From the NCBI GenBank assembly GCA_964644035.1, contig CAZXUH010000001.1:393093-457092 (forward strand): a stretch of 64,000 bases of DNA. Reading direction: 5' to 3'. The position numbers were made by a program, and so were the translations under genes. This document shows, piece by piece, positions 2,195-64,000 of this stretch (within the stretch, counting starts at the first letter, position 1; each line of letters begins with the position of its first letter). The stretch comes from an uncultured Candidatus Saccharibacteria bacterium. GTDB lineage: Bacteria > Patescibacteriota > Minisyncoccia > Phycocordibacterales > DAORIS01. The notes below the pieces were generated by a model that saw only the letters and a list, made by a program, of their open reading frames with translations, had not been told where the DNA came from and searched no databases.

Positions 2195-5100
2195 CTACGG
2201 AGTAGGTTCAGTTACCGGTGGTTCTTCTACTGGAGGAGTTTCCTGCTCAGATCCAGAGTCTGCTGGTGTATCCTCGGAAGGTGTTTCATCTGCCGAAGTA
2301 TCTTCTGGCGGCGGTTCATCACTCGGAGTTTCATCCTCTACAGGTGGAGTGCTTGAAGCATTGCCATCATCTGGTGGTGGTTCATCGCCGCCTCCATTAC
2401 CTGGATTTGATGGTGGGGGTGTGCTTCCACCAGTCTGATTGAGCAATGCTCGCAACTGGTCTTTGTTGATACATACATCATCAAGACAGAGTTCGCTTGT
2501 CTGAACCTTTGTAAAGACACCGAGTGTAGCCTGGATTCTATCGAAGATGCTTACTGAAGAGAGCATTGCAGATGTTGAGGCAATCAACTGTTCAAGCGTC
2601 GTCACCTTCATATCGAGTTCTTGTATACCTTGGACGAGATATGGAGCGAAGCTTGAGTATGCGAGAGATTTATATCCATCAGGATTGGTATTCACAAGAT
2701 CTGGGAATACTGCTTCTACTTCCTGAGCAATGAAACCTGGGTGTCTTTCTGCAGCATCATTTTCAGCAAGCCAGTTGAATGATACCGATCGAAGATTTCT
2801 TAGTTTCTCAAGACTTGATGATGTTGAGAGTGTTGCTATATTTTTCTTCAAACGTTGATCGGATGTACATGAGAGCGCTGAGCTTGTAGGATCGACGTCG
2901 CAGGTACCGTTGGTATTTTGGAATCGAGCGATGACACCAGTTGTTGAGGCATTACCTACCGACAACATGTATGCCGGTGTCGATGTACCAATACCGACAA
3001 AACCATTTGGCGCAACTTCGAGAACCGTCTCGTTAGAAGATGATGAAATTCGGAATGTACTATTAGCTCCAGGTATACCAGTAATATGCAATCGTGCCAA
3101 AGGACTTGTTGTACCAATACCAATGTTACCATCAGCATTGACTCTCAAGAGTGTAGCTCCGCTCGACGAAGCAACATCAAAAATAATTTTGGTTGGTCGT
3201 GTAGAAGTGCCTCGTACAGAGAACGTTGCCCCTGGGGTTGTTGAACCAATCGAAACAGCACCGTTTGAGATTGTAAGTACTGCTCCAAGGTATCCACCAA
3301 GCGCAGCTGTCATTCGCTGGTTGTAGCGTAATTCTCCATTAATAACTTCAAGAGAAGAACAACTTCGACCACCATGCTGACAAGTAATTGAGGTAATAAT
3401 ACCATTTGAATCGTACGTTGGGTCTGATGCCATGTTTTGTACTACCCCCGATGCATCGGATATTATGTCCATAGTATAGCCTCCGTGGAATAGGAAGCTT
3501 GAGGTGTTATTAAAACCAAGTGCTCGATATGAGTTGCCACTAGCATCAGCGTTATTTCTTTCAATCGTTAGTGCTGCACCTTTGAACGGTGTGGATGTTC
3601 CTATTGCCACTTGACCTGTAGAAAGAACTCTCATGAGAGTACCTGATGGCTTGCCTGGCGCATGATTAGTCGATGAAGATATTTCAAATAATGGTGTTGC
3701 ACCAGCTGCACCCGTAATTTGGAGACGTGCGATAGGTGTAGTTGTTCCAATACCGACATTATTCATGCCGGTTATAGTAAGATGACCTGAGCTGTTTATT
3801 ACAAAATCAGTATCAACAACCCCAGGGTAGGTCATTCTTAATTTATTATTCGTACCATATATCTGAAGTGTTCCTGGTGCAGCAGTTGTGTTATTTCCCG
3901 TCGTATTGATAATAATTCCATTGTTGGTGTGTATACCGCCGTTTACATCGAGTTTTACAAGAGGACTTGTCGTACCAATACCCACATTACCGGCTTGATT
4001 AATTTCAAGAAGGCTTACGTTGGTAGATGAAGAAATTCTAAATGGATTAGTGCCGCCAATACCCCTGACCTGGAGAGATGTCGCGGGACTAGATGTACCT
4101 ACTCCAACAAGTCCTCCTGAAGGATTAAGGCTCAAAGTCTTAGCTGTACTTGCACCATCTGTCACGTCAATTTGAAAATGTTGTACTCCACCTGGAGTTT
4201 GAATGGCAAAATCAGCCTGCAAGTTATTGACCTGACCAGTACGTTCAATACGCATTGTGGCCAATCCTCCTGAATCATTGATAGTTAAGATTTTTGCTGG
4301 ATTTGAATTACCAATACCTACATAGCCATTCTGAAGTATCTCAAACATACTTGAGTTTGTTGAAGAAGAAACTCTGAATGGACTTGAGCCAGCAGATCCT
4401 GTGACCTGGAACTTGGTCAAAGGTGTTGTTGTTCCGACTCCAACCTTGCCAGTACCCAATATAGTAAATATTTCATTTCCTGCTGGTGCATCCATAAATG
4501 AATACCTGTTGTTTGCAGAAGTGTAGAGATTGAATCTAAACTGACCGCTTTGAGCACCAAGACCCATAGTTGAGGTTCCATCGTCATAAATTGCCAATTT
4601 TGTATTTGCAGTATCAGAGCCGAGAGATACTTTGGTTGTTGGATTTGCAACTCCGACTCCAAAGTTTCCGTTTTGCAAAAGCTGAAGCATTACTGTATTT
4701 GTTGATGAAGCGATTCTAAATGGATTGGTACCTGCACTTCCTGTAACCTGAAGTTTTGCCGCAGGAGTAGTTGTACCAATACCAACCAATGTATCTTCAT
4801 TGAGAGTCATCACGTTGTTATTTCTAACAAAGAATGAAGCCGTGTCTGTGCTTGCTGCCGAGACCTGCATTGAGAATCGTTCAGTACCACCTGAGTAGAT
4901 GGCGAAACTGTCAGTATTGTCGTTAGGATTTTCAATCGAGAGATTTGCAGTACCGTTTGTTATTCCGACACCCACGTTACCATTTGAATTTATTCTAAAT
5001 ATAGAATTATTTGTTGAAGATGCGACTTCAAAGAGTGGCGTTGTAGGCGCAGAACTAATTCCCTTTACGTTGAGCTGTGCAACAGGCGTAGTTGTACCGA

Positions 5101-8100
5101 TACCTACCCTACCTCCCAATGCTGCGAGAAGAACATTTGCATACTCTACACCAGCTTTTAGACCAGGATTGATTGTAACGTTCCCAGCTGTTCCAGAAGT
5201 TCCTGCATCACCAGCAGTAATCGTAACTGCTCCACCTGTACCAGTACTACCGGCTGAGCCAGCAGTGATACTTAGACTTCCACCTACCGTACTAGCAGCA
5301 CCTGAAGCAGAACCAGCCGCCAATACGAGATTTCCACCAAATGAGTTCGAACCAGTACCTGCACCCGATCGAATAGTAATGACACCACCACCTGTACCAC
5401 CATTACCACCTTCTCCACCAATAATAGTGACCCCTCCACCAGCATCTGTTCCCGATCCACCCAACACTCTGAGAGCTTCAGGTGCATCAGAAGAAGAAAC
5501 ATCAGAAGCATTTAGTCCCTCTATAGAAAGAGTTGCGAGCGGAGTACTTGAACCAATACCTACCATACCATTTTGAAGAATCGAGAAGTATTCATTGCCA
5601 CCCGCTGAAGCTGCGTCGAAGATACCAAAACGATCGGGACCTGTGGCTGAGATCGACCATGTAGTTGTACCTACATTATATGTTCCAGCCCAGACCGAAT
5701 TCCATCGTGCACCTGTTGCTCCGAGATTGTATGCTGACATATTGCCGCTGTATGGTGCACTTGGAAGAATATCTCTCATCATCGATGTGCCAGCGACAGT
5801 AAGAAGACTTGTAGGTGTTGTTGTACCAATACCGACATTGCCCGTCATATAGTAAATATCATTTCCTGTCTGTGTCCATTTTGATAGACCAGGAATACCA
5901 AGTGAAGATGTTGATGTCCATACTGGAGCTGCAGTTGAACCTTGTGACAAAAGCACCTGACCAAGTGTACCAGCATTGTTATTGAAGAGCGTTGCACCTG
6001 ACTGATTAATTTCAAACATCTTCGTATTTGTTGAAGATGAAATGAGGAATGGGGTTACAGTTCCCGATCCAGTAACCTGAAGTCTAGAAATAGGTGTTGT
6101 TGTACCAATACCAACATTTCCAGCTGTAGGGTTGATGATCAAATTGCCTCCTGCAGAAACGAGATATGAGTACAGACCACTTACCCCCAAACGTATACCT
6201 CCACCAATTACACCAGTTCCCCAGTTGTTTGAATTAGTATTGAAACTTATTCGAGGATCTGTTGTCCAGCTGAATGTAGCTTGAGCATCAACACCAGAAC
6301 CTACATCAACCGTAAGATTTCCTTCAGCCACAGTTCCTATTTGCAATTCTGACGTTGGGATAGGTGTAGCAATTCCAACATGTCCATTCGCATTTATTCT
6401 AAATATTGATGCGCCAGTGGATGATGCAATATCTACAAGAGGTACTGTTGGAGCAGTCGATGAACCTCTGATTGCGAGCTGTCCGCTTGGTGTAGATGAT
6501 CCAATACCAAGTCGTCCTGAGAGATAGTTGTGATTTTCACCAACCATATACAAACCATAATTGACCTGTCCGCCAGTAGGATTGCCATAGTATGAGACAA
6601 CTGATGTAGGGCCGAAAATAAATGATACTCCAACTGGAGTTGATTTAACACCAATAAGAGCTCCTGATATATCATAATCACCACCTATGTCTATGATTGT
6701 TTTTGAACCCGCAATCGTAACAGATGAACCACCTGTTGTGAATGCAAGATCAGGATTTGAACTACTTGGATTAATAATGCCAACATTGCCAGTAACAGTA
6801 AGTTTTGAACTTGGATTGACTGTATTGATTCCCACATTGCCGTTTTGCAATATTTCAAGCAAACTTACATTTGTAGACGAAGCGATTCTGAATGGATTCG
6901 TTCCACCCACTCCTGTGACTTGGAATGTGGTCAGAGGTGTTGAAGTACCTACAGCAACTTTTCCTGTGTTGTAATAGATATCGGATCCATTGGTGATCCA
7001 TTGTGATGACGATGCAATATTTGCAAAACCAAGTGAAGATGTTGCTACCCATAGCGGTGCAGCAGTTGAACCTTGTGACAAGAGAACCTGGCCAAGAGTT
7101 CCTGCTGAATCATTAAATAATGTTGCGCCAGACTGATTAATCTCAAACATCTTCGTATTTGTTGAAGATGAAACAAGGAATGGTGATGAGCCACCTGCAC
7201 CTGTGATTTGCAGACGAGCAAGTGGGGATGTAGTGCCAAAACCTGAGTTTCCGCCAGTCAACATAGTCAATTTGACCGTAGCTGTTGGACCAATCATCAA
7301 AGAGCTAGCAACATCGTTGACGATAAAGTTACCAAATACGAGTGAGTTGGCTGCGGAAACCGTGTTGAACGAACCAACTGCTGTACCATAACCAACATTG
7401 ATCGTGTTGGAATTACCGATTGCAGTTGAGTATCCATCGATTGGACCGCTTCTACCATTTACAATATTGAAACTTCCGAGTGCCGCGTTGTATATACCAC
7501 CTCCGACATTGTTACTACCTCCGATTGCGATGCTATTACCAAGCGTTGATGTGGCACTATTGTATTGACCGATAATGATTGATTCTGGGCCGCTCGCAAC
7601 TTGGTTGTGTGCTGTTCTTCTGCTCTGAATATCAATTGATCGTGCACCACGTGCCGCACCGCTGGTATCTCCCATAATAATCGCTCCACTTGATCCAGGA
7701 TGACTTACTGAGAGTGCGCCGAATACTGTTGTTGTTCCAACAACAGAAAATATTGATGCTGGAGATGATGTACCCACACCAACACTACCCGAACTATTCA
7801 AGACGGACAGGACAGGACTGTCAGCACTGCCGTTTGACGTACTGTCACCAATAAATACACTACTTGCGCCGTCGGGTTGGATATACAAATCTGCCCAAGC
7901 ATTAAGAGCGGCACTATGTCCTCCAAGCCATGCTTGAGAATTGTATTCGCCCATCAAAAATGCAACATTGTCTCCGCCGGCTACAATTCTTCCTCTCCAT
8001 GAGGCAGTCGATGCGCCTGTACCGCGTACATAGAGTTTTGCACCGCCATTTGCCGAAGGAATATCGTTGGAACCAATTCCAACATTACCGTTTTGCTGAA

Positions 8101-11100: not shown

Positions 11101-14100
11101 TTGCTCCAGTTGCTGATTGAGCAACAGTAAAGTTCGCAGCGGGAGTTGATGTGCCGACTCCGATATTCCCATTGTTCAAAATAGTGAAGAGTGACGTTCC
11201 GGTTGAAGATGAAACGTTGAATGGATTGACTCCACCTGTTCCTTGAAGATTGAATGTATACGATGACGATGATGCATTGATACCAACAACCGATCCATTC
11301 TCTCGGAGAATAGAATCTGTAAATGCGCTACCTGTCCATCGTGGCATGAAGCCCGATGTGAGAGAGGCGGTGATTGCTGATGAAGTAAAGCCAAGTGAAG
11401 ATGTTGATGTCCAAACAGGAGCTGCTGTTGAACCTTGTGACAAGAGGACCTGACCCAATGTTCCAGCCTGATTATTAAAGAGGGCTGCACCTGATCTATT
11501 GATTTCAAACATCTTCGCATTTGTTGAAGATGAAATAAGGAAAGGACTTGCTGTACCTCCACCTGTTAGCTGAAGTTTTGCAATAGGTGTAGTTGTACCA
11601 ATACCGATATTTCCTGAAGAATTAATTGTCATATGAACAACACCAATACCCGCTCCATCTCCAGTCATAAACTGTAGATCATTAAATGTGCTATCACCAG
11701 CAACAGTACCAATTACAAGTGCGTTGTTTTGTGCTCCTGTAACGACGTCTCCAGCAGAAGTTGTAAGTGCTGAGCCAACAAAACCAAAGTACCCTGTGGT
11801 GAGAGAACCATCCTGGAGCAAGGAGATTCCAGGGTTGTCATTCTCATCGTTATTATCAGTATCAGAATCAATTACAAATAAACCGTCGCCTGCTATACCA
11901 CCACTAACATGAAGACGACCGCTTGGAGACATAGTGCCGATACCGACATTTCCGTTTTGCAAAATCTCAAACAAACTTGCATTTGTCGATGAAGAAACTC
12001 TGAAAGGATTGGTACCACCTGTTCCCCTTACTTGAAAAGTATTGAGCGGTGTTGATGTTCCTACACCAACTTTTCCTGCAGTGTATGAAAGATCATTAAC
12101 TGTTTTTGTCCAGTAGTTGATTGAAGCAGGAAGTGTTGTTGAGCCCAAGATATAGTTCGATACACGTTGGTCTGTGTAATACAAGTTTGAACCTTCGGCG
12201 ACGTTTGTTGTGAAGAATCCGAGAGAAGATGTTGAAGTCCATAGAGGTGCTGCAGTAGAACCTTGTGAAAGTAGTACTTGGCCAAGTGTTCCGTTTTGAT
12301 TGTTGAATGCTACTGCACCTGACTGATTGATTTCGAACATCTTGGTATTTGTCGAAGATGAGACGAGGAATGGATTTGATCCTCCAACTCCTGTTACCTG
12401 CAATCGCGCAAGCGGAGTAGTTGTACCTACACCCAGATTTCCAGTTGATGAGATAGTGATCTTTGCAGAATCACTTGAACCAATCTGAATACTATTTGCA
12501 ATTGAGTTGTTGATGTTTTGTCCAATAATTGTCGCATCTGCTGCCGACACAATGTTGTTGTAACCAAAAATGAGTCCGTTACTTCCGCTTGAAGTATTTG
12601 CATTACCATAAAGTACTGAACCTCCGGCTTCTGCTAGGTTATCCCTACCGATAAGTACAGCATCAGACGAAGAAGCAATGTTACCTCTTCCGATCAATGT
12701 ACTATCGGCAGAAAAAGCATTTGCGCTGTTTGAGATACCAACAATAAATACATCTGCTGCCTCGTTAAGGTTCGATGATCCAAAAATAGATCCACCTGAA
12801 CCATTATTACTATTGCCCAGACCAAATGTAACAGCATTCGCTTTAGTCGAACTATTCGAGAGTCCAACTACAAACTGCTCAGTTTCAACACCTCCCCCCG
12901 TCAAAGCATTGTCACGACCAAAGGATGCACATTGTTCGCAATCCACTGAGTTTGCAAAACCAATTGCAATCGTTTGAACTCTGGACGCCTGGTTGTCGGC
13001 ACCGAAAGCTATTGCATTAACTCCGCTGGCTACCCATGTAGGATCGCCATGCGAAGATTGAATATCGATAGAGCTCGTTCCGCGCGCATTACCGGAAGTG
13101 TCTCCAATCACCACCGCATTTGTAATTGGATACTTCATTGAGAGAGCTCCGTAAATGCTTGTTGTGCCAACCACATACAACGGTGTTGCTGGCGTCGATG
13201 TACCAATACCAACATTACCTGTATTGAAGTAAATGTTAGCGCCGTTATTGATCCATTGTGACGAAGTAGCTGTACCTCCAATACCAAGTGATGAAGTTGC
13301 GACCCAGATAGGCGCAGCTGTTGAACCTTGAGACAAAAGCACTTGACCAAGCGTTCCAGCTTGGTTGTTGAAGAGCGCTGCGCCCGATTGATTAATCTCG
13401 AACATTTTCGCATTTGTTGAAGATGCAATGAGGAACGGACTTGCTCCACCAGCACCCGTGATCTGAAGTCGAGCAATAGGTGTCGATGTACCAATACCCA
13501 ATCGATCGTTTGTATCATCCCAAATAAAATTGGCTGCATCGCTTGAAAGATAACCGTTGGTCGATGCAAATGGAATGATGCCAGAACTAAACGCCGTAGC
13601 GCTGCTGTTTTGAAGCAAAATATTTCTATCGGTGTTGGCTGGTGAGAAGTAAAGCTGCGTTCCGTCGTATTCGACTGCTCCAGCTTCAGCCGATGTGAGG
13701 TTGGTACCAGGGCTGAACTTGAGAGGTGCCGTGCTTGCAGATGCCGTACCAGTTGCAAGATGAAGCAAAGCGCTAGGTGTTGTAACACTGCCTCCCAAAA
13801 ACAACTTACCGTTGAGTTTGCTGCTCAATCGGTCGGTCAAATTCAATGCAATAGTGCCATTGCCATCATAGAGATTCATTGCACCACCGTCGACATGGAT
13901 AAACGATGAACCATTTTGAGAGCGGAATGAGTATGAGTACACACCAATGTTTGGAACAATGCGAGCCTGACCCCCGGCACCAGTGAAGAGGGCGATACCG
14001 TCATCAGCAACGCTGAAACGCTCTACATCAGCACTGTTGAATGTTGCAAAATGCTTATCAGAACCACTACCGGTACTGCGAACAGTCAGACGATGCGTCG

Positions 14101-14704
14101 GTGTGGATGTACCAACGCCAACATTGCCGCTTGAAGTGATCGAAAATACTGAGCTTGTGCTTGCACCAAAGAATTCTGCAACCTTGCCAGCACCAGTTTG
14201 GATGATGCTCATAAACGTCGAAGCACTTGAGGTGCTGTTGCTCTGATCGTTTCTGAAAAATGCACTTCCCGAAACACCGCCAAGTGTTCCCGCATCTTTT
14301 GCAATCATTGCTGCAGGCACTGCACCGAGAATTTTTCTTGGTGTCATTTCACTATCCGCTTCGATCGTCACACCAAGATACAACACCTGATTGAAATCAA
14401 TACTCGTCAACGAAGTTGTTGAACCGAGCATGATGCTGAAGAGTCCGTCGGTTACTTGTACGGTGTCCGACTCTGTCCAGATTGCAACGCCACCTGTTGG
14501 AACTGTGTAGAGTTTGAAAACGATATCGTAATCACCGTTGGTGACTGCAATGTTTGCCGGAGTGGTGAGACGACCTTGATAATTGATTTGAGGATTGAAT
14601 GCAGCTTGTGCAACTGGCATTTCAAAAAATCCGACGAAAGGAATTGCGAGTGATGCAACGAGAACGAGGACTGACACTGGGATGTACAATAGTTTTTTTA
14701 TCAT
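2195..14704 (-). CDS. Giant (4169 aa) secreted, fibre-like surface protein. It has an N-terminal signal/TM, a tail-fibre-like N-terminal domain, more than 8 repeated ~50-aa modules (GIGTTTP..ARLQVTG..SPFLISSSTN.KMFEINQSGA), Gly/Asn-rich beta-helix-like repeats, a C-terminal intramolecular chaperone auto-processing (peptidase S74) domain, and a Pro/Glu/Thr/Asp-rich tail.
   Basis: Single uninterrupted ORF. N-terminus MIKKLLYIPVSVLVLVASLAIPFVGFF..AQA is signal-like. The C-terminal segment CTSDQRLKKNIATL..SFNWLAENDAAERHPGFIAQEVEAVFPDLV..DGYKSLAYSSFAPYLVQGIQEL matches the conserved S74 chaperone-of-endosialidase motif set (approx DNA 2575-2900). The final ~76 aa are PE/T-rich low complexity. Confidence 0.8.
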   Translation of the reverse strand: MIKKLLYIPVSVLVLVASLAIPFVGFFEMPVAQAAFNPQINYQGRLTTPANIAVTNGDYDIVFKLYTVPTGGVAIWTESDTVQVTDGLFSIMLGSTTSLTSIDFNQVLYLGVTIEADSEMTPRKILGAVPAAMIAKDAGTLGGVSGSAFFRNDQSNSTSSASTFMSIIQTGAGKVAEFFGASTSSVFSITSSGNVGVGTSTPTHRLTVRSTGSGSDKHFATFNSADVERFSVADDGIALFTGAGGQARIVPNIGVYSYSFRSQNGSSFIHVDGGAMNLYDGNGTIALNLTDRLSSKLNGKLFLGGSVTTPSALLHLATGTASASTAPLKFSPGTNLTSAEAGAVEYDGTQLYFSPANTDRNILLQNSSATAFSSGIIPFASTNGYLSSDAANFIWDDTNDRLGIGTSTPIARLQITGAGGASPFLIASSTNAKMFEINQSGAALFNNQAGTLGQVLLSQGSTAAPIWVATSSLGIGGTATSSQWINNGANIYFNTGNVGIGTSTPATPLYVVGTTSIYGALSMKYPITNAVVIGDTSGNARGTSSIDIQSSHGDPTWVASGVNAIAFGADNQASRVQTIAIGFANSVDCEQCASFGRDNALTGGGVETEQFVVGLSNSSTKANAVTFGLGNSNNGSGGSIFGSSNLNEAADVFIVGISNSANAFSADSTLIGRGNIASSSDAVLIGRDNLAEAGGSVLYGNANTSSGSNGLIFGYNNIVSAADATIIGQNINNSIANSIQIGSSDSAKITISSTGNLGVGTTTPLARLQVTGVGGSNPFLVSSSTNTKMFEINQSGAVAFNNQNGTLGQVLLSQGSTAAPLWTSTSSLGFFTTNVAEGSNLYYTDQRVSNYILGSTTLPASINYWTKTVNDLSYTAGKVGVGTSTPLNTFQVRGTGGTNPFRVSSSTNASLFEILQNGNVGIGTMSPSGRLHVSGGIAGDGLFVIDSDTDNNDENDNPGISLLQDGSLTTGYFGFVGSALTTSAGDVVTGAQNNALVIGTVAGDSTFNDLQFMTGDGAGIGVVHMTINSSGNIGIGTTTPIAKLQLTGGGTASPFLISSSTNAKMFEINRSGAALFNNQAGTLGQVLLSQGSTAAPVWTSTSSLGFTSSAITASLTSGFMPRWTGSAFTDSILRENGSVVGINASSSSYTFNLQGTGGVNPFNVSSSTGTSLFTILNNGNIGVGTSTPAANFTVAQSATGATSTRGIAFTGSSLSGVSSGSGFLFSLGYNAVNNKQIWFADPDGAGNASFNFARMVIGGAGSLPTLDAVTGDGASRAKLQLGVAGDTNSGIYVGTLLGVNGYAAIGTGYYNQTPPTNGLIVQGNVGIGTTTPQQKLDIANGSIVLDYNNPIKYRRPSDFAQVNVFQLNGNYGVDLFSGTSQPSGTAFGKAFSFFSSGATELMTITGNGLVGIGTSSPIARLHVSGAGASSPFLISSSTNVKMFEINQSGAVAFNNQNGTLGQVLLSQGSTAAPVWTSTSTLGFLTTNVAEGTNLYYTNQRVSDYVLGSTTLPASINYWTLGSGNVYRATGKVGVGTTTPWAALTVAGITDSTSYYSGGQLFGLATTTGNLFLGGATPVAAGVSGAYNFFVGNQSGFSNTSGNDNIFVGNQSGFSNVGGSDNIFLGSNAGTGNVSGGNNLFLGNSAGSGSTGSNNVFLGTGAGSSNAGGLVNVYIGNHAGSQNNGGSANVAIGYLSGQGSGTGNSANTLVGYQSGGALTSGSNNIMLGYRVGTTSTTGANNILIGSVLARSASDSNFLNIGNALFGDLSTGNIGLSTTTPIARLQVTGAGTASPFLISSSTNTKMFEINQSGAVLFNNDAGTSGFILRSFGSTAAPQWVATSSLGFASVASSSQWITNGSDIYYNTGKVAVGTSTPLTTFQVTGVGGTNPFRVSSSTNAVMLQLLQNGNFGIGSSSPIEKLSVAGNGYFAGNISAEGVLNVLGSGTSTFYSDVFVNAGRDLYVGDWQTGGGKIVLTGLSAGPTPPRRGGAIEWRHGTSISDALQGYTYTNASGQLVFSSTTQSSGTSIGTSYISFIDGGAYFSGNVGLGTTTPLARLQITGGGANNPFLVSSSTHTKMFEINQSGAVAFNNQNGTLGQVLLSQGSTAAPLWTSTSSLGFLTTNVAEGSNLYYTDQRVSNYILGSTTLPASINYWTKTVNDLSYTAGKVGVGTSTPLTTLQVTGVGGTNPFRIASSTNTVLFEVQQNGNVGIGSNDIPSANGGAKLYVRGTGASTASWRGRIVAGGDNVAFLMGEYNSQAWLGGHSAALNAWADLYIQPDGASSVFIGDSTSNGSADSPVLSVLNSSGSVGVGTSSPASIFSVVGTTTVFGALSVSHPGSSGAIIMGDTSGAARGARSIDIQSRRTAHNQVASGPESIIIGQYNSATSTLGNSIAIGGSNNVGGGIYNAALGSFNIVNGRSGPIDGYSTAIGNSNTINVGYGTAVGSFNTVSAANSLVFGNFIVNDVASSLMIGPTATVKLTMLTGGNSGFGTTSPLARLQITGAGGSSPFLVSSSTNTKMFEINQSGATLFNDSAGTLGQVLLSQGSTAAPLWVATSSLGFANIASSSQWITNGSDIYYNTGKVAVGTSTPLTTFQVTGVGGTNPFRIASSTNVSLLEILQNGNVGINTVNPSSKLTVTGNVGIINPSSSNPDLAFTTGGSSVTIAGSKTIIDIGGDYDISGALIGVKSTPVGVSFIFGPTSVVSYYGNPTGGQVNYGLYMVGENHNYLSGRLGIGSSTPSGQLAIRGSSTAPTVPLVDIASSTGASIFRINANGHVGIATPIPTSELQIGTVAEGNLTVDVGSGVDAQATFSWTTDPRISFNTNSNNWGTGVIGGGIRLGVSGLYSYLVSAGGNLIINPTAGNVGIGTTTPISRLQVTGSGTVTPFLISSSTNTKMFEINQSGATLFNNNAGTLGQVLLSQGSTAAPVWTSTSSLGIPGLSKWTQTGNDIYYMTGNVGIGTTTPTSLLTVAGTSMMRDILPSAPYSGNMSAYNLGATGARWNSVWAGTYNVGTTTWSISATGPDRFGIFDAASAGGNEYFSILQNGMVGIGSSTPLATLSIEGLNASDVSSSDAPEALRVLGGSGTDAGGGVTIIGGEGGNGGTGGGVITIRSGAGTGSNSFGGNLVLAAGSASGAASTVGGSLSITAGSAGSTGTGGAVTITAGDAGTSGTAGNVTINPGLKAGVEYANVLLAALGGRVGIGTTTPVAQLNVKGISSAPTTPLFEVASSTNNSIFRINSNGNVGVGITNGTANLSIENPNDNTDSFAIYSGGTERFSMQVSAASTDTASFFVRNNNVMTLNEDTLVGIGTTTPAAKLQVTGSAGTNPFRIASSTNTVMLQLLQNGNFGVGVANPTTKVSLGSDTANTKLAIYDDGTSTMGLGAQSGQFRFNLYTSANNRYSFMDAPAGNEIFTILGTGKVGVGTTTPLTKFQVTGSAGSSPFRVSSSTNSSMFEILQNGYVGIGNSNPAKILTINDSGGLATMRIERTGQVNNLQADFAIQTPGGVQHFQIDVTDGASTAKTLSLNPSGGLVGVGTSSPATSLQVRGIGGTNPFRISSSTNVSLLEINQAGNVGIGTTSPLVKLDVNGGIHTNNGIIINTTGNNTTAAPGTLQIYGTNNKLRMTYPGVVDTDFVINSSGHLTITGMNNVGIGTTTPIARLQITGAAGATPLFEISSSTNHAPGKPSGTLMRVLSTGQVAIGTSTPFKGAALTIERNNADASGNSYRALGFNNTSSFLFHGGYTMDIISDASGVVQNMASDPTYDSNGIITSITCQHGGRSCSSLEVINGELRYNQRMTAALGGYLGAVLTISNGAVSIGSTTPGATFSVRGTSTRPTKIIFDVASSSGATLLRVNADGNIGIGTTSPLARLHITGIPGANSTFRISSSSNETVLEVAPNGFVGIGTSTPAYMLSVGNASTTGVIARFQNTNGTCDVDPTSSALSCTSDQRLKKNIATLSTSSSLEKLRNLRSVSFNWLAENDAAERHPGFIAQEVEAVFPDLVNTNPDGYKSLAYSSFAPYLVQGIQELDMKVTTLEQLIASTSAMLSSVSIFDRIQATLGVFTKVQTSELCLDDVCINKDQLRALLNQTGGSTPPPSNPGNGGGDEPPPDDGNASSTPPVEDETPSDEPPPEDTSADETPSEDTPADSGSEQETPPVEEPPVTEPTP
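4300..13450 (-). repeat. Intragenic near-identical DNA repeats within the giant gene, with 0.8-1.3 kb spacing
   Basis: The motif ...ctgattgatttcaaacatcttcgtatttgttgaagatga.. recurs at ~6011, 7141, 8461, 9281, 10361, 11491, 12321 and 13381, with weaker copies at 4341, 4680, 6850, 8100, 8990, 11180 and 11960. A second motif, ccttgtgacaa(g/a)ag.acctg.cc.a..gttcc, precedes each copy. Confidence 0.8.
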
Positions 14705-15075
14705 TTTCCTATTTGTGCATCCTTGTCCAATAACGTGACTGTTTCTGTAAGACTCTTTGCGGGAGTTTTCAGTGCAACATTTGATGTTGTTGTCTCACCT
14801 GAAAAATAGAAAAAGGCGGATGCAAATCCGCCTACACAAAAGAGAAATACTGCAACCAAAAGTCCTCGACCATTTGCAAACAATGCTCTCCCGGCTGGCA
14901 CGTAGTGCTTGGTCATGAAATAAGATTTTACTTCCCGTTCACTGACAAACCAGTTGCGGCCTACCTTCTTACCTTTGACCTTTCCAGAACGAATAAGAGC
15001 CCCGATGTAATCGGAGTGATACCCTGAAATTTGGGCGGCTTGCTTAAGCGTGATGTAATCCTGAAATATGGCCAT
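14701..15075 (-). CDS. Membrane-tethered helix-turn-helix protein with an HTH_17/excisionase-type DNA-binding domain and one TM helix; stop codon overlaps the giant gene start (ATGA)
   Basis: ITLKQAAQISGYHSDYIGALIRSGKVKGKKVGRNWFVSEREVKSY fits the HTH_17 pattern (..IRsG.l....gr.wri..). A hydrophobic stretch LLVAVFLFCVGGFASAFFYF follows, then a 30-aa tail. The 4-nt overlap 14701-14704 is read directly from the coordinates. Confidence 0.6.
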   Translation of the reverse strand: MAIFQDYITLKQAAQISGYHSDYIGALIRSGKVKGKKVGRNWFVSEREVKSYFMTKHYVPAGRALFANGRGLLVAVFLFCVGGFASAFFYFSGETTTSNVALKTPAKSLTETVTLLDKDAQIGK

Positions 15076-15090
15076 GTTGAGGGCTCGTAC

Positions 15091-15117
15091 AGAAATCTCG
15101 AGTTACTCGAGATTTCT
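15091..15117. promoter_or_regulatory. Perfect 27-bp palindrome AGAAATCTCGAG-TTA-CTCGAGATTTCT followed by a T-run, ~16 nt upstream of the HTH gene start. Candidate operator, leader hairpin or terminator.
   Basis: Read directly: the 12-bp arms are exact reverse complements. Confidence 0.55.
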
Positions 15118-15204
15118 TTTTTACTAATAAAAGCCCTGTAGATATAATTATATCTCAGAAAATGTTCAAAATATGGCTATAAATCAAGGGTTGTTGATAA
15201 CTTT

Positions 15205-16596
15205 TTAATAAAGTTTTTGAGTTTTTTCCCTTATGAAAATTCTGACGATTACGTAGATTCCGATGAACAAAATGATCAAGTAAATGAGCAAAAATAAACC
15301 AATGAAAAATATAATTTGTCTATTTTTTAGACTTCCCTGCCCGACAAGATTTGAGCTCGAAATAAACATACCTGGAACGTGCGTTTCGCTACCTCGACTC
15401 AAGAAAACAATGTCAAAAAATGAGTCTCCGGAGGTAAGTGAAGCAGGCACTACAACTTCAAGATATCCATCGCTATGTTTTCTGAAAAGAAATGTATTGA
15501 TGTTACCCTTTTCGATGATTCGAATGTATGACTGTTCTGTATTTTTTGGTATGACCGATTTTGGTACACGCACGATCACTGCTTGTTGATTGTTGATAGA
15601 AAAATTTTGTCGTGAACCAAAAATCCTCGCACCATTTTGAAAAAATAAAATCGATTCAGTTGCTGTGGTCGAAGTTGAAATAGTATTTCCGCCAAAAAGT
15701 GGAAGTGATCCAAAATTGTTTCCCGATGAATCGTAGAAAATAAAATCGGTGACCGCGCCGGAAGAATAATTTCCAAATCGATCTCGTGCAAACGCTGTAT
15801 AAAAATAATGCATGTTTGAAAATGCATTTGAATCGAGTGCTTGCTGTCCCCGACCTTCGTACACAAAATATCCTTCTTGAGGATCGCGCGGATAATATCT
15901 CGTACCGCGTCTGATACGAACAAAATCAAAATCTTCATCGCGAGGATTCTTCCACGTCAGCAAAATATTTCCTCCAAATGAAAGTTCAGCACGAAAATCA
16001 GTAATGTTCGAAGGTGGCGTACGATCAAACAATGATTTTGTTCTAAACGCATAGGTCACCTGCGCCGACTGACCAAAACCGTCCGATGCTCGAACTGTTA
16101 CGTAGTACAGCGTATCCGGCAAAAGGTTGGTCAGCAAAATATTGTGAATATTCCTCAGATCAGTTTCAGTAACATTGCCCGCCGAAGTATCTGGATCGGT
16201 ACCCCAGGAAACCGTGGACAAAGTCTTGGCTGGGGTCGTCCAACTCACTATGGCCGTCGTCGTAGAAGCCTCTATTTTGAAGTTTTCGAAGACAATTGGC
16301 CATTTGTACGTACCTCCAGGACCTGGTTCGGCGGGAGGTTGTGGTGCCACAGAAGGTGTGGTTGTGGGAGTCGGAGGGGTGGTAGTAGCAGTACAATCTG
16401 AAGGACAACTACTGACCGTTTCCCCTAAAAACAGTTCGCAAATCAGATTGTTATTACAGCCCTCAACCAAGAGCTCGATTACCGTCGAATCATCCGCTGT
16501 CGCGGCCTGTACCGAAGAATGTCCTATAGAAACATAAAGGACACAGACCGAAATTACCAGAAATAACCAGGCAAATGTCGTCTTTTTTGAAAGCAT
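15205..16596 (-). CDS. Secreted, membrane-anchored protein with an N-terminal signal, a Cys-rich segment, a Pro/Thr linker, two fibronectin-III-like domains and a C-terminal TM anchor
   Basis: Signal MLSKKTTFAWLFLVISVCVLYVSIG..VQA. Linker TTTPPTPTTTPSVAPQPPAEPGPG. FN3-like stretches (TAIVSWTTPAKTLSTVSWGTDP...LYYVTVRASD; ILLTWKNP..DFVRIRRGT..YFY). C-terminal IIFFIGLFLLIYLIILFIGIYVIV plus RIFIREK. Confidence 0.6.
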   Translation of the reverse strand: MLSKKTTFAWLFLVISVCVLYVSIGHSSVQAATADDSTVIELLVEGCNNNLICELFLGETVSSCPSDCTATTTPPTPTTTPSVAPQPPAEPGPGGTYKWPIVFENFKIEASTTTAIVSWTTPAKTLSTVSWGTDPDTSAGNVTETDLRNIHNILLTNLLPDTLYYVTVRASDGFGQSAQVTYAFRTKSLFDRTPPSNITDFRAELSFGGNILLTWKNPRDEDFDFVRIRRGTRYYPRDPQEGYFVYEGRGQQALDSNAFSNMHYFYTAFARDRFGNYSSGAVTDFIFYDSSGNNFGSLPLFGGNTISTSTTATESILFFQNGARIFGSRQNFSINNQQAVIVRVPKSVIPKNTEQSYIRIIEKGNINTFLFRKHSDGYLEVVVPASLTSGDSFFDIVFLSRGSETHVPGMFISSSNLVGQGSLKNRQIIFFIGLFLLIYLIILFIGIYVIVRIFIREKTQKLY

Positions 16597-16603
16597 GGTC
16601 GTA

Positions 16604-17359
16604 TTATAACGCTACTGCTGTTGCCGTGATAACTGCCGAATAAGCACCACTTTCTTGCATCTTTGACGGTCCTATTTCAGCTCTTACCTTGACGGTCGTG
16701 GTGGCGCCCGAAGGATGGTTGGAACCGGTCGATTGCGATATATTCTTGGTTGTTAGAGTAAAACCGTCCCAGCAAGCGTCTGCGGTGTCAGAGGAGCCTG
16801 TATTACACACAGAACTGTTATCTTTGAAGCGTGGAAGAATATCAGCTCCTTCTGGGCTAAATCCAAAGGCCGATGTAGTCGAAACTATAGCAAAAGTATA
16901 ATCAGGGTCAGCACTTGCCGGTGTGTAATCGTCAAAAGAGATTCCTCCGGAGGTTTGAAGTGCAGGATCAGTCGAGGCTTGGACCGAAAGCACGTAGCCA
17001 GCGCTATTGTCGGTCAATACATTCCAAGCGATAGAACCATTACTCGTACCTCCAATCAAGCCGTTGATATCAGCAAGCGCCACATCTGGTGGTGAGCTAA
17101 TCGAGATATACGACGTATACATCTGCTGATACCCAGCTTTCATGACATAGTTGGTGCTACTGGAAAGTCCTGTTGCTATCTCACCTACCGTATCTTCGAG
17201 ATTGAAACTGGTACTCGTCGAACGCCCTCCCCCGACATCAATAGCATCAAAATTGATTTTGTAATTGGTACTTTGCATTGCAGCAAAAGCCGAAACGAAA
17301 GACAGTGAGAGAATACCGATGGCAATGTACGCGCCCGCGCGCATGATTTTATTTATCAT
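16604..17359 (-). CDS. WxL-like secreted cell-surface protein (Csc-cluster-like, small subunit type)
   Basis: Signal peptide; Ser/Thr/Gly-rich beta-rich composition. The C-terminus SGAYSAVITATAVAL resembles the WxL C-terminal motif G.Y.GTLTWTL but lacks Trp. Start overlaps the upstream gene by 4 nt. Confidence 0.45.
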   Translation of the reverse strand: MINKIMRAGAYIAIGILSLSFVSAFAAMQSTNYKINFDAIDVGGGRSTSTSFNLEDTVGEIATGLSSSTNYVMKAGYQQMYTSYISISSPPDVALADINGLIGGTSNGSIAWNVLTDNSAGYVLSVQASTDPALQTSGGISFDDYTPASADPDYTFAIVSTTSAFGFSPEGADILPRFKDNSSVCNTGSSDTADACWDGFTLTTKNISQSTGSNHPSGATTTVKVRAEIGPSKMQESGAYSAVITATAVAL

Positions 17360-18360
17360 TGCTTGCGACGAAATTCAAATCTTGAAAGGAAGAAGTAAGA
17401 AATAAGTATAAGCAGGACAAGACCACCGCCAACAGCAAGAAGAATTTTCCACGGAAGAATCCAGAATGCCAGAACTTTGGTATCAATAATGTCACCGTAA
17501 CCTCGATTGAGTTCGAGAGTTGCCTTGTAACGTCCGATCCTGAAGCTATCATCTGCCCAATTTACATCTCGGTAACGCAATGAATCTGGAAGTGAGAAAT
17601 AAGCGTCAATCGGTAAAACTCCGATTTCACTACCAAACAGATTGCTAATCCTGATCACACCGTAGGGCGCCAAGTGCACACTACCTGTGTTGTTGAAAAG
17701 TATTTGGAATTTGTCAGGAGATGTTTCGTATATCCAATGTTTATCTGAAATACGAAAATCTTCCACAAAACCGCTTTCATTTACCGGACCGTTGACTCTG
17801 ACAAAAAACAAGACACCGACACGAGAAATAATCTGAGCACCACTAACCGAAGTACTACTGTCGTTCTGAGGCCCATTGGCGACAATTACCGACGAATAAT
17901 AGCCTCCCGGCAAGGCATTTGCTGGGATTTGTATGGTGATAGGAATAGTGATTCTATCCCCAAAATTAAGGGTAAAATCGGAAACTGCAGGCCGTAAAGA
18001 GTCCTTAAATGAATTAGGGCTTCTGTCATCGCCAAGAAGAACAACGGGATTTTGTTCTTCACGAGAACCGACGAAATCTTCGGTCGTAACCTTGAAATCC
18101 GTCTTCCTGTTTATACGACTGGTAACTGAAATATATTTGACGATTGTGTCGCCCGGATCAGCAAAAATTTCCATTTTGCCTGGTTCGAGAACGAAGTCAT
18201 TTTTGTCATCGACACTCATCGATGTGATCTGAGGTCTTTCGGAAGTCTGAGCAAATGTTGCCGCAGGAGCAAGTATGCACGACATCAATACGATTAAGAA
18301 TGCAATATTCTTAGTACGGCTTAGTCCGCAAGATCGTAGTATTGATTTCTTTTTCGGCAT
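17356..18360 (-). CDS. DUF916/DUF3324-like cell-surface protein with a C-terminal TM anchor (CscA-like)
   Basis: Signal peptide; N-terminal domain ..ITSMSVDDKNDFVLEPG..; C-terminal ..YKATLELNRGYG..VLAFWILPWKILLAVGGGLVLLILISYFF plus RRKQ. This is the architecture of DUF916-DUF3324 proteins in WxL loci. Confidence 0.5.
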   Translation of the reverse strand: MPKKKSILRSCGLSRTKNIAFLIVLMSCILAPAATFAQTSERPQITSMSVDDKNDFVLEPGKMEIFADPGDTIVKYISVTSRINRKTDFKVTTEDFVGSREEQNPVVLLGDDRSPNSFKDSLRPAVSDFTLNFGDRITIPITIQIPANALPGGYYSSVIVANGPQNDSSTSVSGAQIISRVGVLFFVRVNGPVNESGFVEDFRISDKHWIYETSPDKFQILFNNTGSVHLAPYGVIRISNLFGSEIGVLPIDAYFSLPDSLRYRDVNWADDSFRIGRYKATLELNRGYGDIIDTKVLAFWILPWKILLAVGGGLVLLILISYFFLSRFEFRRKQ

Positions 18361-18365
18361 TTTTA

Positions 18366-19028
18366 TTAGATCGTTGTCGCTGTAGCCACGATGGTAGCCT
18401 TGTATGTTCCGGATGGAATATAGGAGTTATTCTGTTCTACCGCATAGCAGACCGTACTGTCAACACCCGAAGTTGTTGTTGTCGACGAGCGTGTAGCGAT
18501 TGTTACGTCCGATGTTGTGAAGCCTTTGTATTTGAGTGTAGTTGAAGTTGCGTGAGCGTTGGTAGTAGTGCTGCAGAGAGATCCTGTTCCCCATGTACCA
18601 GTTGGTACATCGGTACCGAAGGCTGAGTAGCCAAATTCGTATGTACCAAATGGAGTACTCCAAAATGCCGGTGCGCCAGTCTGGTCGTCACCAATAGTGT
18701 TGGTTGAGGATTGCATAGCAGGAGTAGAAGTAGCCTTGACTGCGAGGGTGTAGCCGAGGTTATTGTTTGTCTTAACATTCCAAGTCGTTGTCGCAACAGC
18801 ACTGTTTTGCGCGACACCGACTGCTGTACTCATGGTTGCATCAGCAGGGCTCGTGATCGAAATACCAGCGGTCACGTTGAGCGTGATAATGACCGTATCT
18901 GATGCCGAGGCCTGTGCTCCAGCGTACATCGGTTCGAGAGATGCGTACGTAACCAGTGCGCCGACGCTCAAGACCAAGTATGATGCAGCGAGCTTAAATA
19001 TTTTTTTCTTAATGTTCATGATGTACAA
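18366..19028 (-). CDS. WxL-like secreted cell-surface protein
   Basis: Signal MNIKKKIFKLAASYLVLSVGALVTYAS. TTTWNVKTNNNLGYTLAVKAT resembles the first W.L region. The C-terminal SGTYKATIVATATTI resembles the WxL terminal motif. It is the first gene of the 4-gene minus-strand operon. Confidence 0.45.
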   Translation of the reverse strand: MYIMNIKKKIFKLAASYLVLSVGALVTYASLEPMYAGAQASASDTVIITLNVTAGISITSPADATMSTAVGVAQNSAVATTTWNVKTNNNLGYTLAVKATSTPAMQSSTNTIGDDQTGAPAFWSTPFGTYEFGYSAFGTDVPTGTWGTGSLCSTTTNAHATSTTLKYKGFTTSDVTIATRSSTTTTSGVDSTVCYAVEQNNSYIPSGTYKATIVATATTI

Positions 19029-19260
19029 TTTACCCTCTTATAATTTCCAGACCCTAATAGTACAGGAATCATTCTAAATGTCACAACTGCAATATATGAA
19101 TAAGATGTGTATAAACCGTTAATAACCCACAGTATCATTGTATATAGACGTTTTATGGCCTATATTCTGACAAGAAACTTTTATTTTTAGACCGAATTTA
19201 GATTTATTTTATTTAAATTTTAATTAAATAAATCTTTTTATTTTGTCGAGAAAACTTTTT

Positions 19261-19300
19261 TGGAGCCGCTACACAAATCGAACTGGCTACTAGATTTGCA
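19261..19300 (-). other. Degenerate partial copy of the tRNA-Thr 3' half (T-loop AGTTCGA plus identical acceptor 3' end AGCGGCTCCA); possible att-site remnant or tRNA pseudogene
   Basis: tggagccgct (19261-19270) is identical to 19315-19324. The alignment tgcaaatcta.gtagcc.agttcgatttgtgtagcggctcca against tgtaaacagtaggtcctcagttcgaatctgagaagcggctcca was read directly. Confidence 0.5.
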
Positions 19301-19314
19301 TGGAACTAAAATTT

Positions 19315-19390
19315 TGGAGCCGCTTCTCAGATTCGAACTGAGGACCTACTGTTTACAAAACAGTTGCTCTACCAACTGAGCTAAAGCGGC
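19315..19390 (-). tRNA. tRNA-Thr, anticodon UGU, CCA encoded
   Basis: Reverse complement: GCCGCTTTAGCTCAGTTGGTAGAGCAACTGTTTTGTAAACAGTAGGTCCTCAGTTCGAATCTGAGAAGCGGCTCCA. It forms a canonical cloverleaf with anticodon loop TTTGTAA. Confidence 0.85.
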
Positions 19391-63594: not shown

Positions 63595-64000
63595 TTACGG
63601 ACACGCTACGATTCCACTTCCAAGTGCAGAAGAAATTTGTCGCGCTGCTCCGCTGTTGTCGACACACCAATATGCACCAGTGCCAGAAAGTTGTGCAGAC
63701 ACTGCGTACGCAACACCGCTACTGTTGCATACAAGACTTGAATACGAAGGATAATTTGAAGCTGAAACCAGTCGTGCCAAACCTGCCGATGTATCAGTAA
63801 ACATTCCACTGCCGCAACTAGTACTGACCGATCCATAATCTCCTGCTGTTGTGTAGTAGAGCTCAGCTGCATTTCTAATATGCGCCATTTGAGCCTTTAT
63901 CTTGGCGTCATTTCCCTTGGTACGTGCAGTACCAAGTGCTGAGAGAGCAATAGCCGAAAGAATACCCATAATGGTAATAACAACCAGAAGTTCAATGAGG
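63595..64000 (-). CDS. Type IV pilin/pseudopilin (prepilin-type N-terminal methylation domain); N-terminus runs off the window end
   Basis: The open frame at the window edge encodes ..LIELLVVITIMGILSAIALSALGTARTKGNDAKIKAQMAHIRNAAELYY.., the class III signal/hydrophobic helix motif. A C-terminal Cys pair is present. Confidence 0.8.
   Translation of the reverse strand, partial: LIELLVVITIMGILSAIALSALGTARTKGNDAKIKAQMAHIRNAAELYYTTAGDYGSVSTSCGSGMFTDTSAGLARLVSASNYPSYSSLVCNSSGVAYAVSAQLSGTGAYWCVDNSGAARQISSALGSGIVACP

Follow-up and report, generated by a model that had tools for sequence, protein, structure and literature searches.

A conserved six-gene cassette of candidate phyla radiation bacteria encoding a candidate usher-less pilus and a giant fibre

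Described surface systems and the layout of the cassette

Here we describe six consecutive minus-strand genes, P1 to P6, in a 64,000-nucleotide (nt) stretch of DNA (the window: positions 393,093 to 457,092 of contig CAZXUH010000001.1, assembly GCA_964644035.1) from an uncultured bacterium of the candidate phyla radiation (CPR), and we compare them with the closest described surface systems. One of these is the Pam pilus of the CPR bacterium Ca. Mycosynbacter amalyticus (Troman et al., bioRxiv 10.64898/2026.03.03.709456), whose immunoglobulin (Ig)-like pilins assemble through donor-strand exchange, with neither an usher nor trans-envelope machinery. According to that preprint, the pilins PamA (55 kDa) and PamB (39 kDa) combine a nine-strand N-terminal domain, a donated linker strand and a truncated Ig C-terminal domain; the chaperones PamC and PamD are PapD-like and carry a C-terminal transmembrane (TM) helix; PamR (32.8 kDa) is an FnIII tether with an N-terminal strand and a C-terminal TM; and PamT is a single-domain tip. 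The same source finds a tail-fibre-like protein consistently co-localised with pam operons and reports the system mainly in Saccharimonadia and Microgenomatia. The WxL clusters of Lactobacillales/Bacillales encode a protein, WxLIP, with the architecture DUF916-DUF3324-TM (Hassan et al. 2023, PMC10599100), and the WxL proteins themselves are described as peptidoglycan-bound monomers, not filaments (PMC10599100). Bd2133 of the predator Bdellovibrio is a MAT fibre that acts in prey recognition (PMC10769870).

We confirmed the six genes in the window's list of open reading frames (ORFs), at the positions and with the spacing of the first four (5, -4 and 7 nt) that had been reported in a first-pass annotation. 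The cassette and the elements within it are as follows.

P1, 18366..19028, minus strand: 220 amino acids (aa) as listed; small secreted single-domain pilin-like protein, candidate shaft subunit
P2, 17356..18360, minus strand: 334 aa; membrane-anchored two-domain chaperone of the WxLIP/PapD-like type
P3, 16604..17359, minus strand: 251 aa as listed; putative tip subunit, PamT-like
P4, 15205..16596, minus strand: 463 aa; candidate anchor or terminator, PamR-like
Hairpin in the P4-P5 gap, 15091..15117, minus strand: 12-bp stem, fold z = -4.3
P5, 14701..15075, minus strand: 124 aa; membrane protein with an HTH_17 domain and a TM segment
P6, 2195..14704, minus strand: 4169 aa; secreted fibre of the MAT/phage-tail-fibre type
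Peptidase_S74 domain of P6, 2693..2863, minus strand: residues 3948-4004; Pfam PF13884 plus motif

P4 and P5 are separated by 129 nt, P5 and P6 overlap by 4 nt, and P6 ends 6 nt from the end of the convergent dnaE gene. A separate gene call on a Logan contig gave the same genes, with starts at ATG 19019 for P1 and ATG 17344 for P3. The start listed for P1 is a TTG at 19028, and the ATG at 19019 is preceded by a Shine-Dalgarno-like sequence (AGAGGG); the latter, which yields 217 aa in the separate call, is the likely true start. For P3, the separate call gives 246 aa and begins 5 codons later than the listed ORF.

On balance, we think it probable that P1 to P4 encode an usher-less donor-strand-exchange pilus and that P5 and P6 form a trimeric fibre with its membrane partner, both serving host attachment. 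The resemblance to Pam runs through most of the components. Both systems belong to CPR bacteria, bear Sec signals on all components and have no usher. In each there is a PapD-like chaperone with a C-terminal TM (P2 is likened to PamC/PamD by description and fold), a small tip subunit (P3 is of PamT type by model match), an FnIII anchor bearing a strand at its N-terminus and a TM at its C-terminus (P4 is likened to PamR by description) and a co-localised tail-fibre-like gene (P6). The cassette differs from Pam in that P1, at 220 aa, has a single domain where PamA and PamB have two, that P2 is the one chaperone in place of PamC plus PamD, and that it has no PamE. P4, at 463 aa, is larger than the 32.8-kDa PamR and carries a putative Cys-knot, and the lineage is Paceibacteria. 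P1, P2 and P4 gave no Pam match in NCBIfam, where PamT is the one Pam model that we encountered, and a regular-expression scan of the 64-kb window found no P-loop motif of F1 ATP-synthase alpha/beta. The cassette is thus a distinct, simpler Pam-related variant in another CPR class. The first-pass annotation had considered the combination not to be a described system; for the kind of system, that view no longer holds, given that the Pam preprint describes the same logic and that the NCBIfam PamT model is matched by P3.

The chaperone, the pilin-like subunits and the anchor

The protein encoded between the two small subunits, P2, consists of a signal peptide, two beta-domains (residues 44-162 and 180-301) and a C-terminal TM segment (residues 304-327; nt 17380-17451), and its AlphaFold2 model (predicted local distance difference test score, 89) shows two beta-domains plus the TM helix. 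When this model was compared with PDB structures using Foldseek, the best matches were the Enterococcus faecium WxLIP entries 9i1y and 9i25 (chain C; E ~2e-12, ~270 columns aligned), the second of which is WxLIP bound to a WxL protein; these were followed by CfaA, CsuC, FimC, PapD and Caf1M (E 1e-10 to 1e-6). At the sequence level, P2 itself has no direct Pfam match, PF06030 (WxLIP_PGBD, formerly DUF916) matches 9 of 48 members of its family (best E 1.4e-8), and the sole significant match of the family profile among PDB sequences is EfmWxLIP1, the WxLIP1 of E. faecium (E 5e-5). The assignment of DUF3324 in this family is a purely structural one. All 424 relatives of P2 come from CPR genomes or metagenomes. 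The structural, profile and PF06030 matches together indicate that the first-pass label of a DUF916/DUF3324-like protein with a C-terminal TM was correct, and P2 is a genuine remote homologue of the Firmicute WxLIP (DUF916/DUF3324 plus TM) with a PapD-like chaperone fold. The Pam preprint (10.64898/2026.03.03.709456) mentions neither WxL nor DUF916, and our literature search returned no paper tying DUF916 or DUF3324 to PapD or chaperone-usher systems; the homology of the CPR chaperone with WxLIP thus seems to be a connection not reported before. The same search returned nothing on the WxLIP-WxL complex of 9i25.

The proteins on either side of P2 are paralogues of each other (32% identity over 170 aa, E 6e-17). 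P1 consists of a signal peptide, a conserved N-terminal strand of alternating hydrophobic residues (residues ~43-56; nt 18861-18902) and a beta-sandwich domain, and the consensus of its family directly after the signal peptide reads ATDxVVVTLxVTxG. This alternating V-x-L-x-V strand at the mature N-terminus is found in the P1 family and in P4 and is missing from P3. No WxL, Pam or LPXTG signal was detected in P1, and neither P1 nor its 33-member family has a Pam-related NCBIfam match; we infer that P1 is the shaft subunit. P3 consists of a signal peptide, a conserved module of ~55 aa with an SxNY hairpin (residues 28-84; nt 17108-17278) and a pilin domain (residues 85-251; nt 16607-17107). It matches the NCBIfam model NF058579, "CPR-type pilus protein PamT", over model positions 14-129 of 241 (E 1.5e-9, 37.7 bits), as do all 45 members of the P3 family examined (best E 2.1e-13). 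Because its score lies below the PamT equivalog cutoff of 240, P3 is to be regarded as a homologue and not as an equivalog.

The first-pass annotation had named P1 and P3 as two small secreted WxL-like proteins, a label that our results contradict: neither has a Pfam match or a WxL structural match, the W-x-L motif and PF13731 are absent from both (33 relatives scanned), and the WxL chain of 9i25 is missing among their structural matches. Chaperone-usher pilins dominate the structural matches of P3, with the TasA fibre (8aur) and the Pyrodictium cannulae (9h8b) ranking lower; the P3 family profile had no significant match among PDB sequences. P1 and P3 share the chaperone-usher pilin fold and do not belong to the WxL proteins. 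The likeness to the chaperone-usher pili of diderm bacteria, above all the archaic (Csu/CupE) and class 5 (CFA/I) types, lies in the Ig-like pilin and PapD-like chaperone folds. In contrast to those pili, the cassette has no outer-membrane usher (none of the six proteins is a candidate for a large beta-barrel, and there is no outer membrane), its chaperone is tethered to the membrane, its putative terminator is an FN3-TM protein, and sequence similarity is not detectable.

The P3 module is widespread, with ~2,450 representatives at 50% clustering. A search of representatives with the P3 profile listed 150 matches, all of them close family (E < 1e-57), and PamT proteins proper were not reached among these. 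Of the best 150 representatives, 48 carry extra N-terminal domains, always with the P3 module at the C-terminus. The extra domains are mostly carbohydrate-binding (Laminin_G_3 in 14, DUF2341 in 6), with Toxin_R_bind_N, CBM_4_9 and a sialidase N-terminal domain occurring once or twice each. FimH and PapG are tip adhesins of lectin-plus-pilin design, and the P3 relatives with an N-terminal lectin and a C-terminal pilin module share this design. Among the orthologues of P3 itself, either Laminin_G_3 (with or without DUF2341) or other carbohydrate-binding domains were seen at L006:10923-12326, L055:1521-3044, L077:11085-12893 and L072:11027-12871; the addition is N-terminal in the first three, whereas in L072 it separates the SxNY hairpin module from the pilin domain. 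One P3-module representative (among P0242-P0387) has 2187 aa. Two long proteins with a C-terminal P3 module also match WxLIP_PGBD (DUF916), and these may be chaperone-tip fusions or may represent read-through of overlapping P2/P3 genes.

Direct Pfam searches of the window's proteins gave fn3, HTH_17 (below its cutoff) and Peptidase_S74, and no direct match to WxL, DUF916 or DUF3324; the first-pass calls of an FN3 protein, a membrane-tethered helix-turn-helix (HTH) protein and a giant fibre accordingly stood for P4, P5 and P6. P4 contains, in order, a signal peptide, a VxLxV strand (residues ~37-46; nt 16459-16488), a four-Cys knot region (residues 47-68), a Pro/Thr linker, FN3 domains (residues ~105-290), a further beta region and a C-terminal TM, seen as a hydrophobic segment at residues 423-458 (nt 15223-15330). 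Its Pfam matches are fn3 and Pur_ac_phosph_N, and FN3 matches were also obtained in the PDB. Across the P4 family, the mature N-terminus VxLxVEG is conserved and is followed by the four-Cys motif. This motif, GCNNNxICE...GE...SCPxDC, is strongly conserved, lies at 16393-16458 of the window immediately after the N-terminal strand and may form a small disulfide knot. By this layout, P4 is a candidate PamR-like anchor or terminator.

The gap between P4 and P5 contains a hairpin, AGAAAUCUCGAG-UAA-CUCGAGAUUUCU (window 15091-15117), located 20 nt upstream of the P5 start, and the gap folds with z = -4.3. The same stem sequence follows P4 in the nearest relatives (L001, L003 and L006), a stem of at least 9 bp is present at this position in 25 of 58 loci compared with 11 in shuffles, and in other loci different hairpins, often with a U-tract, take its place. 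The coding strand shows no U-tract at the window's hairpin, and in that direction the element therefore does not qualify as a canonical terminator. Its probable role is to separate two transcription units or to serve in processing or attenuation, and its stability and conservation between P4 and P5 suggest the former.

The membrane helix-turn-helix protein and the giant fibre

P5 consists of an HTH_17 domain (residues 7-54, predicted to be cytoplasmic), a TM segment at residues ~69-93 and a short external tail. The HTH_17 match, at 26.5 bits, falls just under the cutoff of 27, and TIGR01764 matches with an E value of 9e-5. A homologue search with P5 returned 14 matches, all of them stand-alone proteins. 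At three of the 79 loci described below, in unrelated-looking genomes, one reading frame joins a P5-like HTH plus TM to the fibre's conserved N-terminal domain (L038:6968-8365, L051:12636-15590 and L056:13580-16237), so that a single polypeptide is predicted to contain a cytoplasmic HTH, a TM segment and an extracellular fibre. By Rosetta-stone logic, these fusions are evidence of a joint action of P5 and P6 at the membrane.

The fibre gene product, P6, has a high content of Gly, Ser, Thr and Asn and begins with a signal or anchor (residues 1-34, the hydrophobic segment covering 1-32) and a conserved N-terminal domain (residues ~35-165; nt 14210-14602), of which ~130 aa are kept across loci, including the fusion proteins. 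The GxVGIGT motif occurs at least 28 times in the body, a longer repeat is present in 7 copies, and the body is followed by the Peptidase_S74 domain (PF13884; E 2.1e-17, residues 3948-4004) and a Pro/Glu/Asp-rich tail. The motif S3948-D-Q-R-L-K3953 fits the SDxxxK catalytic consensus of PMC10769870, and S3948 is the predicted autocleavage site. Matches to PHROG tail-fibre families (E 7e-38 and 3e-32) covered the S74 region and an internal region, and the sole significant match to a PDB sequence was Bdellovibrio Bd2133 (E 5e-6); a second entry of the Bdellovibrio series, 8ojn, was not significant (E 0.007). The likeness to the MAT fibres of Bdellovibrio bacteriovorus (Caulton et al. 2024, PMC10769870) extends to the signal peptide, the conserved N-terminal domain, the repetitive body of beta-helix type with VG..P...L-like motifs and the C-terminal S74 domain with SDxxxK, and in both cases the fibre serves a cell and not a virus, and that cell relies on contacting another bacterium. 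Unlike the MAT fibres, P6 is about four times longer (4169 aa versus ~1000 aa), has the Pro/Glu/Asp-rich tail after S74, is paired with and sometimes fused to an HTH-TM protein, and is genetically linked to the candidate pilus operon.

We also considered for the P5-P6 fusions a model resembling MyRF, in which a DNA-binding domain joined to an S74 domain is released as a transcription factor. This was rejected on topology: the S74 domain lies at the far extracellular C-terminus, so that its cleavage would not free the HTH.

Conservation, genomic context and interpretation

We scanned species-representative genomes and obtained 79 loci, all in CPR metagenome-assembled genomes, whose record titles include Taylorbacteria, Nomurabacteria, Paceibacterota, Parcubacteria and Minisyncoccia; many of the third-party annotation records among them are titled "uncultured Candidatus Saccharibacteria", a naming that is unconfirmed. 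P1, P2 and P3 occur in that order at every one of the 79 loci. P4 is present in 72, and the remaining loci stop at or just past P3, consistent with truncation at a contig end. Enough sequence to evaluate the genes downstream of P4 was available at 44 loci, of which 40 have a P6-like fibre gene and 27 have an HTH gene (P5) between P4 and the fibre gene. The cassette proteins share 40-65% identity across dozens of species in the same six-gene order, with differing flanks and usually no tRNA. The flanks found in the window are almost never kept, dnaE recurring in 2 loci and the release factor in 11. At these 11 loci the release factor is divergent, and a tRNA-Thr(cgt)/(ggt) pair stands alongside in 10 (L063 has only the (cgt) gene). 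The subset that combines tRNA-Thr with the release factor (L019, L022, L027, L032, L034, L039, L054, L060, L063 and L074) has them, the tRNA genes in tandem, in divergent orientation ~0.2-1.5 kb upstream of P1, and these loci are mostly titled Nomurabacteria or Paceibacterota. The window differs in having tRNA-Thr(tgt) in the orientation of the cassette and the release factor ~2 kb further upstream. The proximity of tRNA-Thr and the release factor may be a remnant of ancestral linkage; tRNA adjacency is missing from most related loci.

The surroundings of the cassette in the window agree with the first-pass annotation as to the tRNA-Thr with its degenerate 3' copy, the convergent dnaE facing P6 and the type IV pilin gene at the window edge.

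tRNA-Thr(tgt), 19315-19390, minus strand: found with Rfam; context only, outside the cassette
Degenerate 3' copy of tRNA-Thr, 19258-19314, minus strand: directly downstream of the intact tRNA; outside the cassette
dnaE, 23-2188, plus strand: convergent with P6
Type IV pilin gene cut by the window edge, 63595-64000, minus strand: reads LIELLVVITIMGILSAIALSALGTARTKG

The 13-mer AGCGGCTCCAAAA occurs at the tRNA end (19312-19324) and again at 19258-19270, with a chance expectation of 0.05. The degenerate copy corresponds to the 3' ~40 nt of tRNA-Thr(tgt), retains this 13-mer exactly, has a broken T-stem and lies ~40 nt after the tRNA. A former tandem tRNA or an earlier rearrangement may have left it behind; tandem tRNA-Thr genes are present in related loci. 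The tRNA was the sole Rfam match in the intergenic regions. Housekeeping genes nearby encode EF-Ts, S2, a release factor, L25 and an aldolase. Amid the translation genes, ~3.5 kb upstream of the cassette, lies a gene whose 437-aa product carries an SLT_2 lytic transglycosylase domain (22596-23909, minus strand) and could be relevant to surface structures passing through the wall; this gene is not kept beside the cassette in other loci. The type IV pilin at the window edge has four Cys residues in its C-terminal part, and with the candidate pilus the genome would encode at least two different filament systems.

The first-pass annotation had described the locus as an accessory island, and one alternative to our proposal is of this kind: a horizontally acquired island or degenerate prophage inserted at tRNA-Thr, with the giant gene as a phage tail fibre. 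The adjacent tRNA-Thr and its degenerate 3' copy, the S74 domain and PHROG tail-fibre matches of P6, and the resemblance of P5 to excisionase-family HTH domains would all fit such an origin. However, the two copies of the tRNA end lie within ~40 nt of each other and do not enclose the region, a search allowing mismatches found no distal copy of the tRNA 3' end in the window (the tRNA and its adjacent scar were the only occurrences), the GC content is flat at 0.41-0.46 throughout, and the ORFs examined yielded neither an integrase nor any other phage gene. Between the same tRNA and P1, the closest relative carries ribonucleotide reductase genes, with no mobile-element genes and no flanking repeats. 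The recurrence of the six-gene order in dozens of species amid other flanks, usually without a tRNA, and the TM segment of P5 together with its fusion to the fibre in three genomes are likewise difficult to reconcile with an island or prophage. We therefore rejected insertion at an att site, and this explanation, already largely refuted, is in our view extremely improbable. The retained gene order, varying flanks, flat GC and non-bracketing tRNA scar argue for a vertically maintained cassette moved by ordinary rearrangement: the six genes are a conserved cassette in Paceibacteria-type CPR bacteria and not a genomic island.

The strongest competitor is a non-filamentous complex of the WxL/Csc type, in which P2 would be a permanent anchor displaying monomeric P1 and P3 through a beta-hairpin, no pilus would form, and P4 would be a separate adhesin. 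WxLIP is the closest relative of P2 in both sequence and structure, sharing its signal peptide, two Ig-like domains and C-terminal TM. The gene layout is also similar, with small secreted beta-proteins encoded on either side of a chaperone-type gene and a larger anchored surface protein encoded close by: WxL clusters pair WxLIP with small and larger secreted beta-proteins, and a hairpin of WxLIP is predicted to enter the WxL protein (PMC10599100). The subunits point the other way, since the WxL motif and domain missing from P1 and P3, the predominance of chaperone-usher pilins among the structural matches and the PamT match of P3 all count against a WxL complex, as does the N-terminal strand that P1 and P4 share, which is typical of donor-strand subunits. 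In addition, all six proteins lack LPXTG motifs and sortase signals, and the lineage belongs to the CPR, a different phylum from the Lactobacillales/Bacillales. We consider this explanation unlikely, although less so than the third, in which P1 and P3 would self-assemble without a chaperone into a TasA- or cannula-like matrix fibre and P2 and P4 would be unrelated Ig/FN3 surface proteins. The appearance of 8aur and 9h8b among the structural matches of P3 is what speaks for such a fibre, but both rank beneath the chaperone-usher pilins. It would also leave unexplained the specific two-domain chaperone/WxLIP architecture of P2, whose gene lies between P1 and P3 at 79 of 79 loci, and the two representatives that seem to fuse WxLIP_PGBD to the P3 module; we regard it as very unlikely.

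For the usher-less pilus and fibre that we favour, we infer polymerisation, subunit order, trimerisation and cleavage of the fibre, and a role in host binding, starting from the folds, homologies, membrane topology signals and conserved gene order observed here. P1 to P4 would be exported through Sec, with P2 held in the membrane by its C-terminal helix and its two Ig-like domains capping the incomplete fold of freshly exported subunits, as is the case for PapD, FimC and WxLIP. The distal tip would be P3, the homologue of PamT, equipped in many relatives with a lectin domain in the manner of FimH or PapG. P1 would then polymerise, each copy placing its N-terminal VxLxV strand in the groove of the subunit before it, and P4 would stop growth by contributing an equivalent strand and tether the filament through its Pro/Thr linker, FN3 domains and C-terminal TM helix. 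Beside the pilus, P6 would make up a giant fibre of three chains, similar to the tail fibres of phages or the MAT fibres of Bdellovibrio, its S74 domain driving trimerisation before cleaving itself off at S3948, with P5 as the membrane partner or base of the fibre. Both modules would most likely mediate attachment to a host cell, and the host or prey attachment role proposed in the first-pass annotation is plausible.

Several considerations weigh against this proposal. The view of the cassette in this lineage comes from gene sequences and predicted folds. P3 is the sole protein with sequence-level homology to a named Pam component, at 37.7 bits against a cutoff of 240, and its Foldseek matches are weak one by one (E ~1e-2). 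P1 has a single domain, unlike PamA and PamB. Donor-strand insertion, the order of the subunits and the equivalence of P2 to PamC/D are suggested by architecture and modelled fold, and the tip role of PamT is itself an AlphaFold-based proposal in the preprint (10.64898/2026.03.03.709456). Given that WxLIP is described as a stable surface partner of WxL and not as a transient chaperone, P2 could hold P1 and P3 without any polymer. The connection between the fibre and the pilus rests on their conserved adjacency.

A broader reading, which we put forward only tentatively and consider doubtful, is that the chaperone-usher, Pam and WxL/WxLIP systems, so far regarded as separate, are one ancient machine family to which the cassette is the missing link, and that an S74 fibre is coupled through the membrane to a cytoplasmic HTH. 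If this were true, all three systems would be built on a two-domain chaperone whose donated strand fills in an incomplete Ig fold, a TM-tethered chaperone would suffice in monoderm-like cells to build a pilus from three structural genes, and the three fusions would point to an outside-to-inside link from host contact to DNA binding or gene regulation. The homology of the CPR chaperone to WxLIP also suggests that the WxL clusters of Firmicutes, which play a part in the virulence of enterococci and Listeria, may call for a new look at their function with chaperones and donor strands in mind. With one chaperone, a tip, a shaft and an anchor, the proposed structure would be the simplest usher-less donor-strand-exchange pilus yet seen, and this four-part simplicity makes it attractive for reconstitution. 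Few CPR lineages are as abundant as the Paceibacteria or as poorly understood, and we know of no described mode by which they attach to their hosts. A gene order kept in at least 79 species representatives, together with a tip family of ~2,450 representatives, makes the cassette a prime candidate for the Paceibacteria attachment apparatus, and its variable tip lectin domains and variable fibre may offer a route to reading host specificity from the genome.

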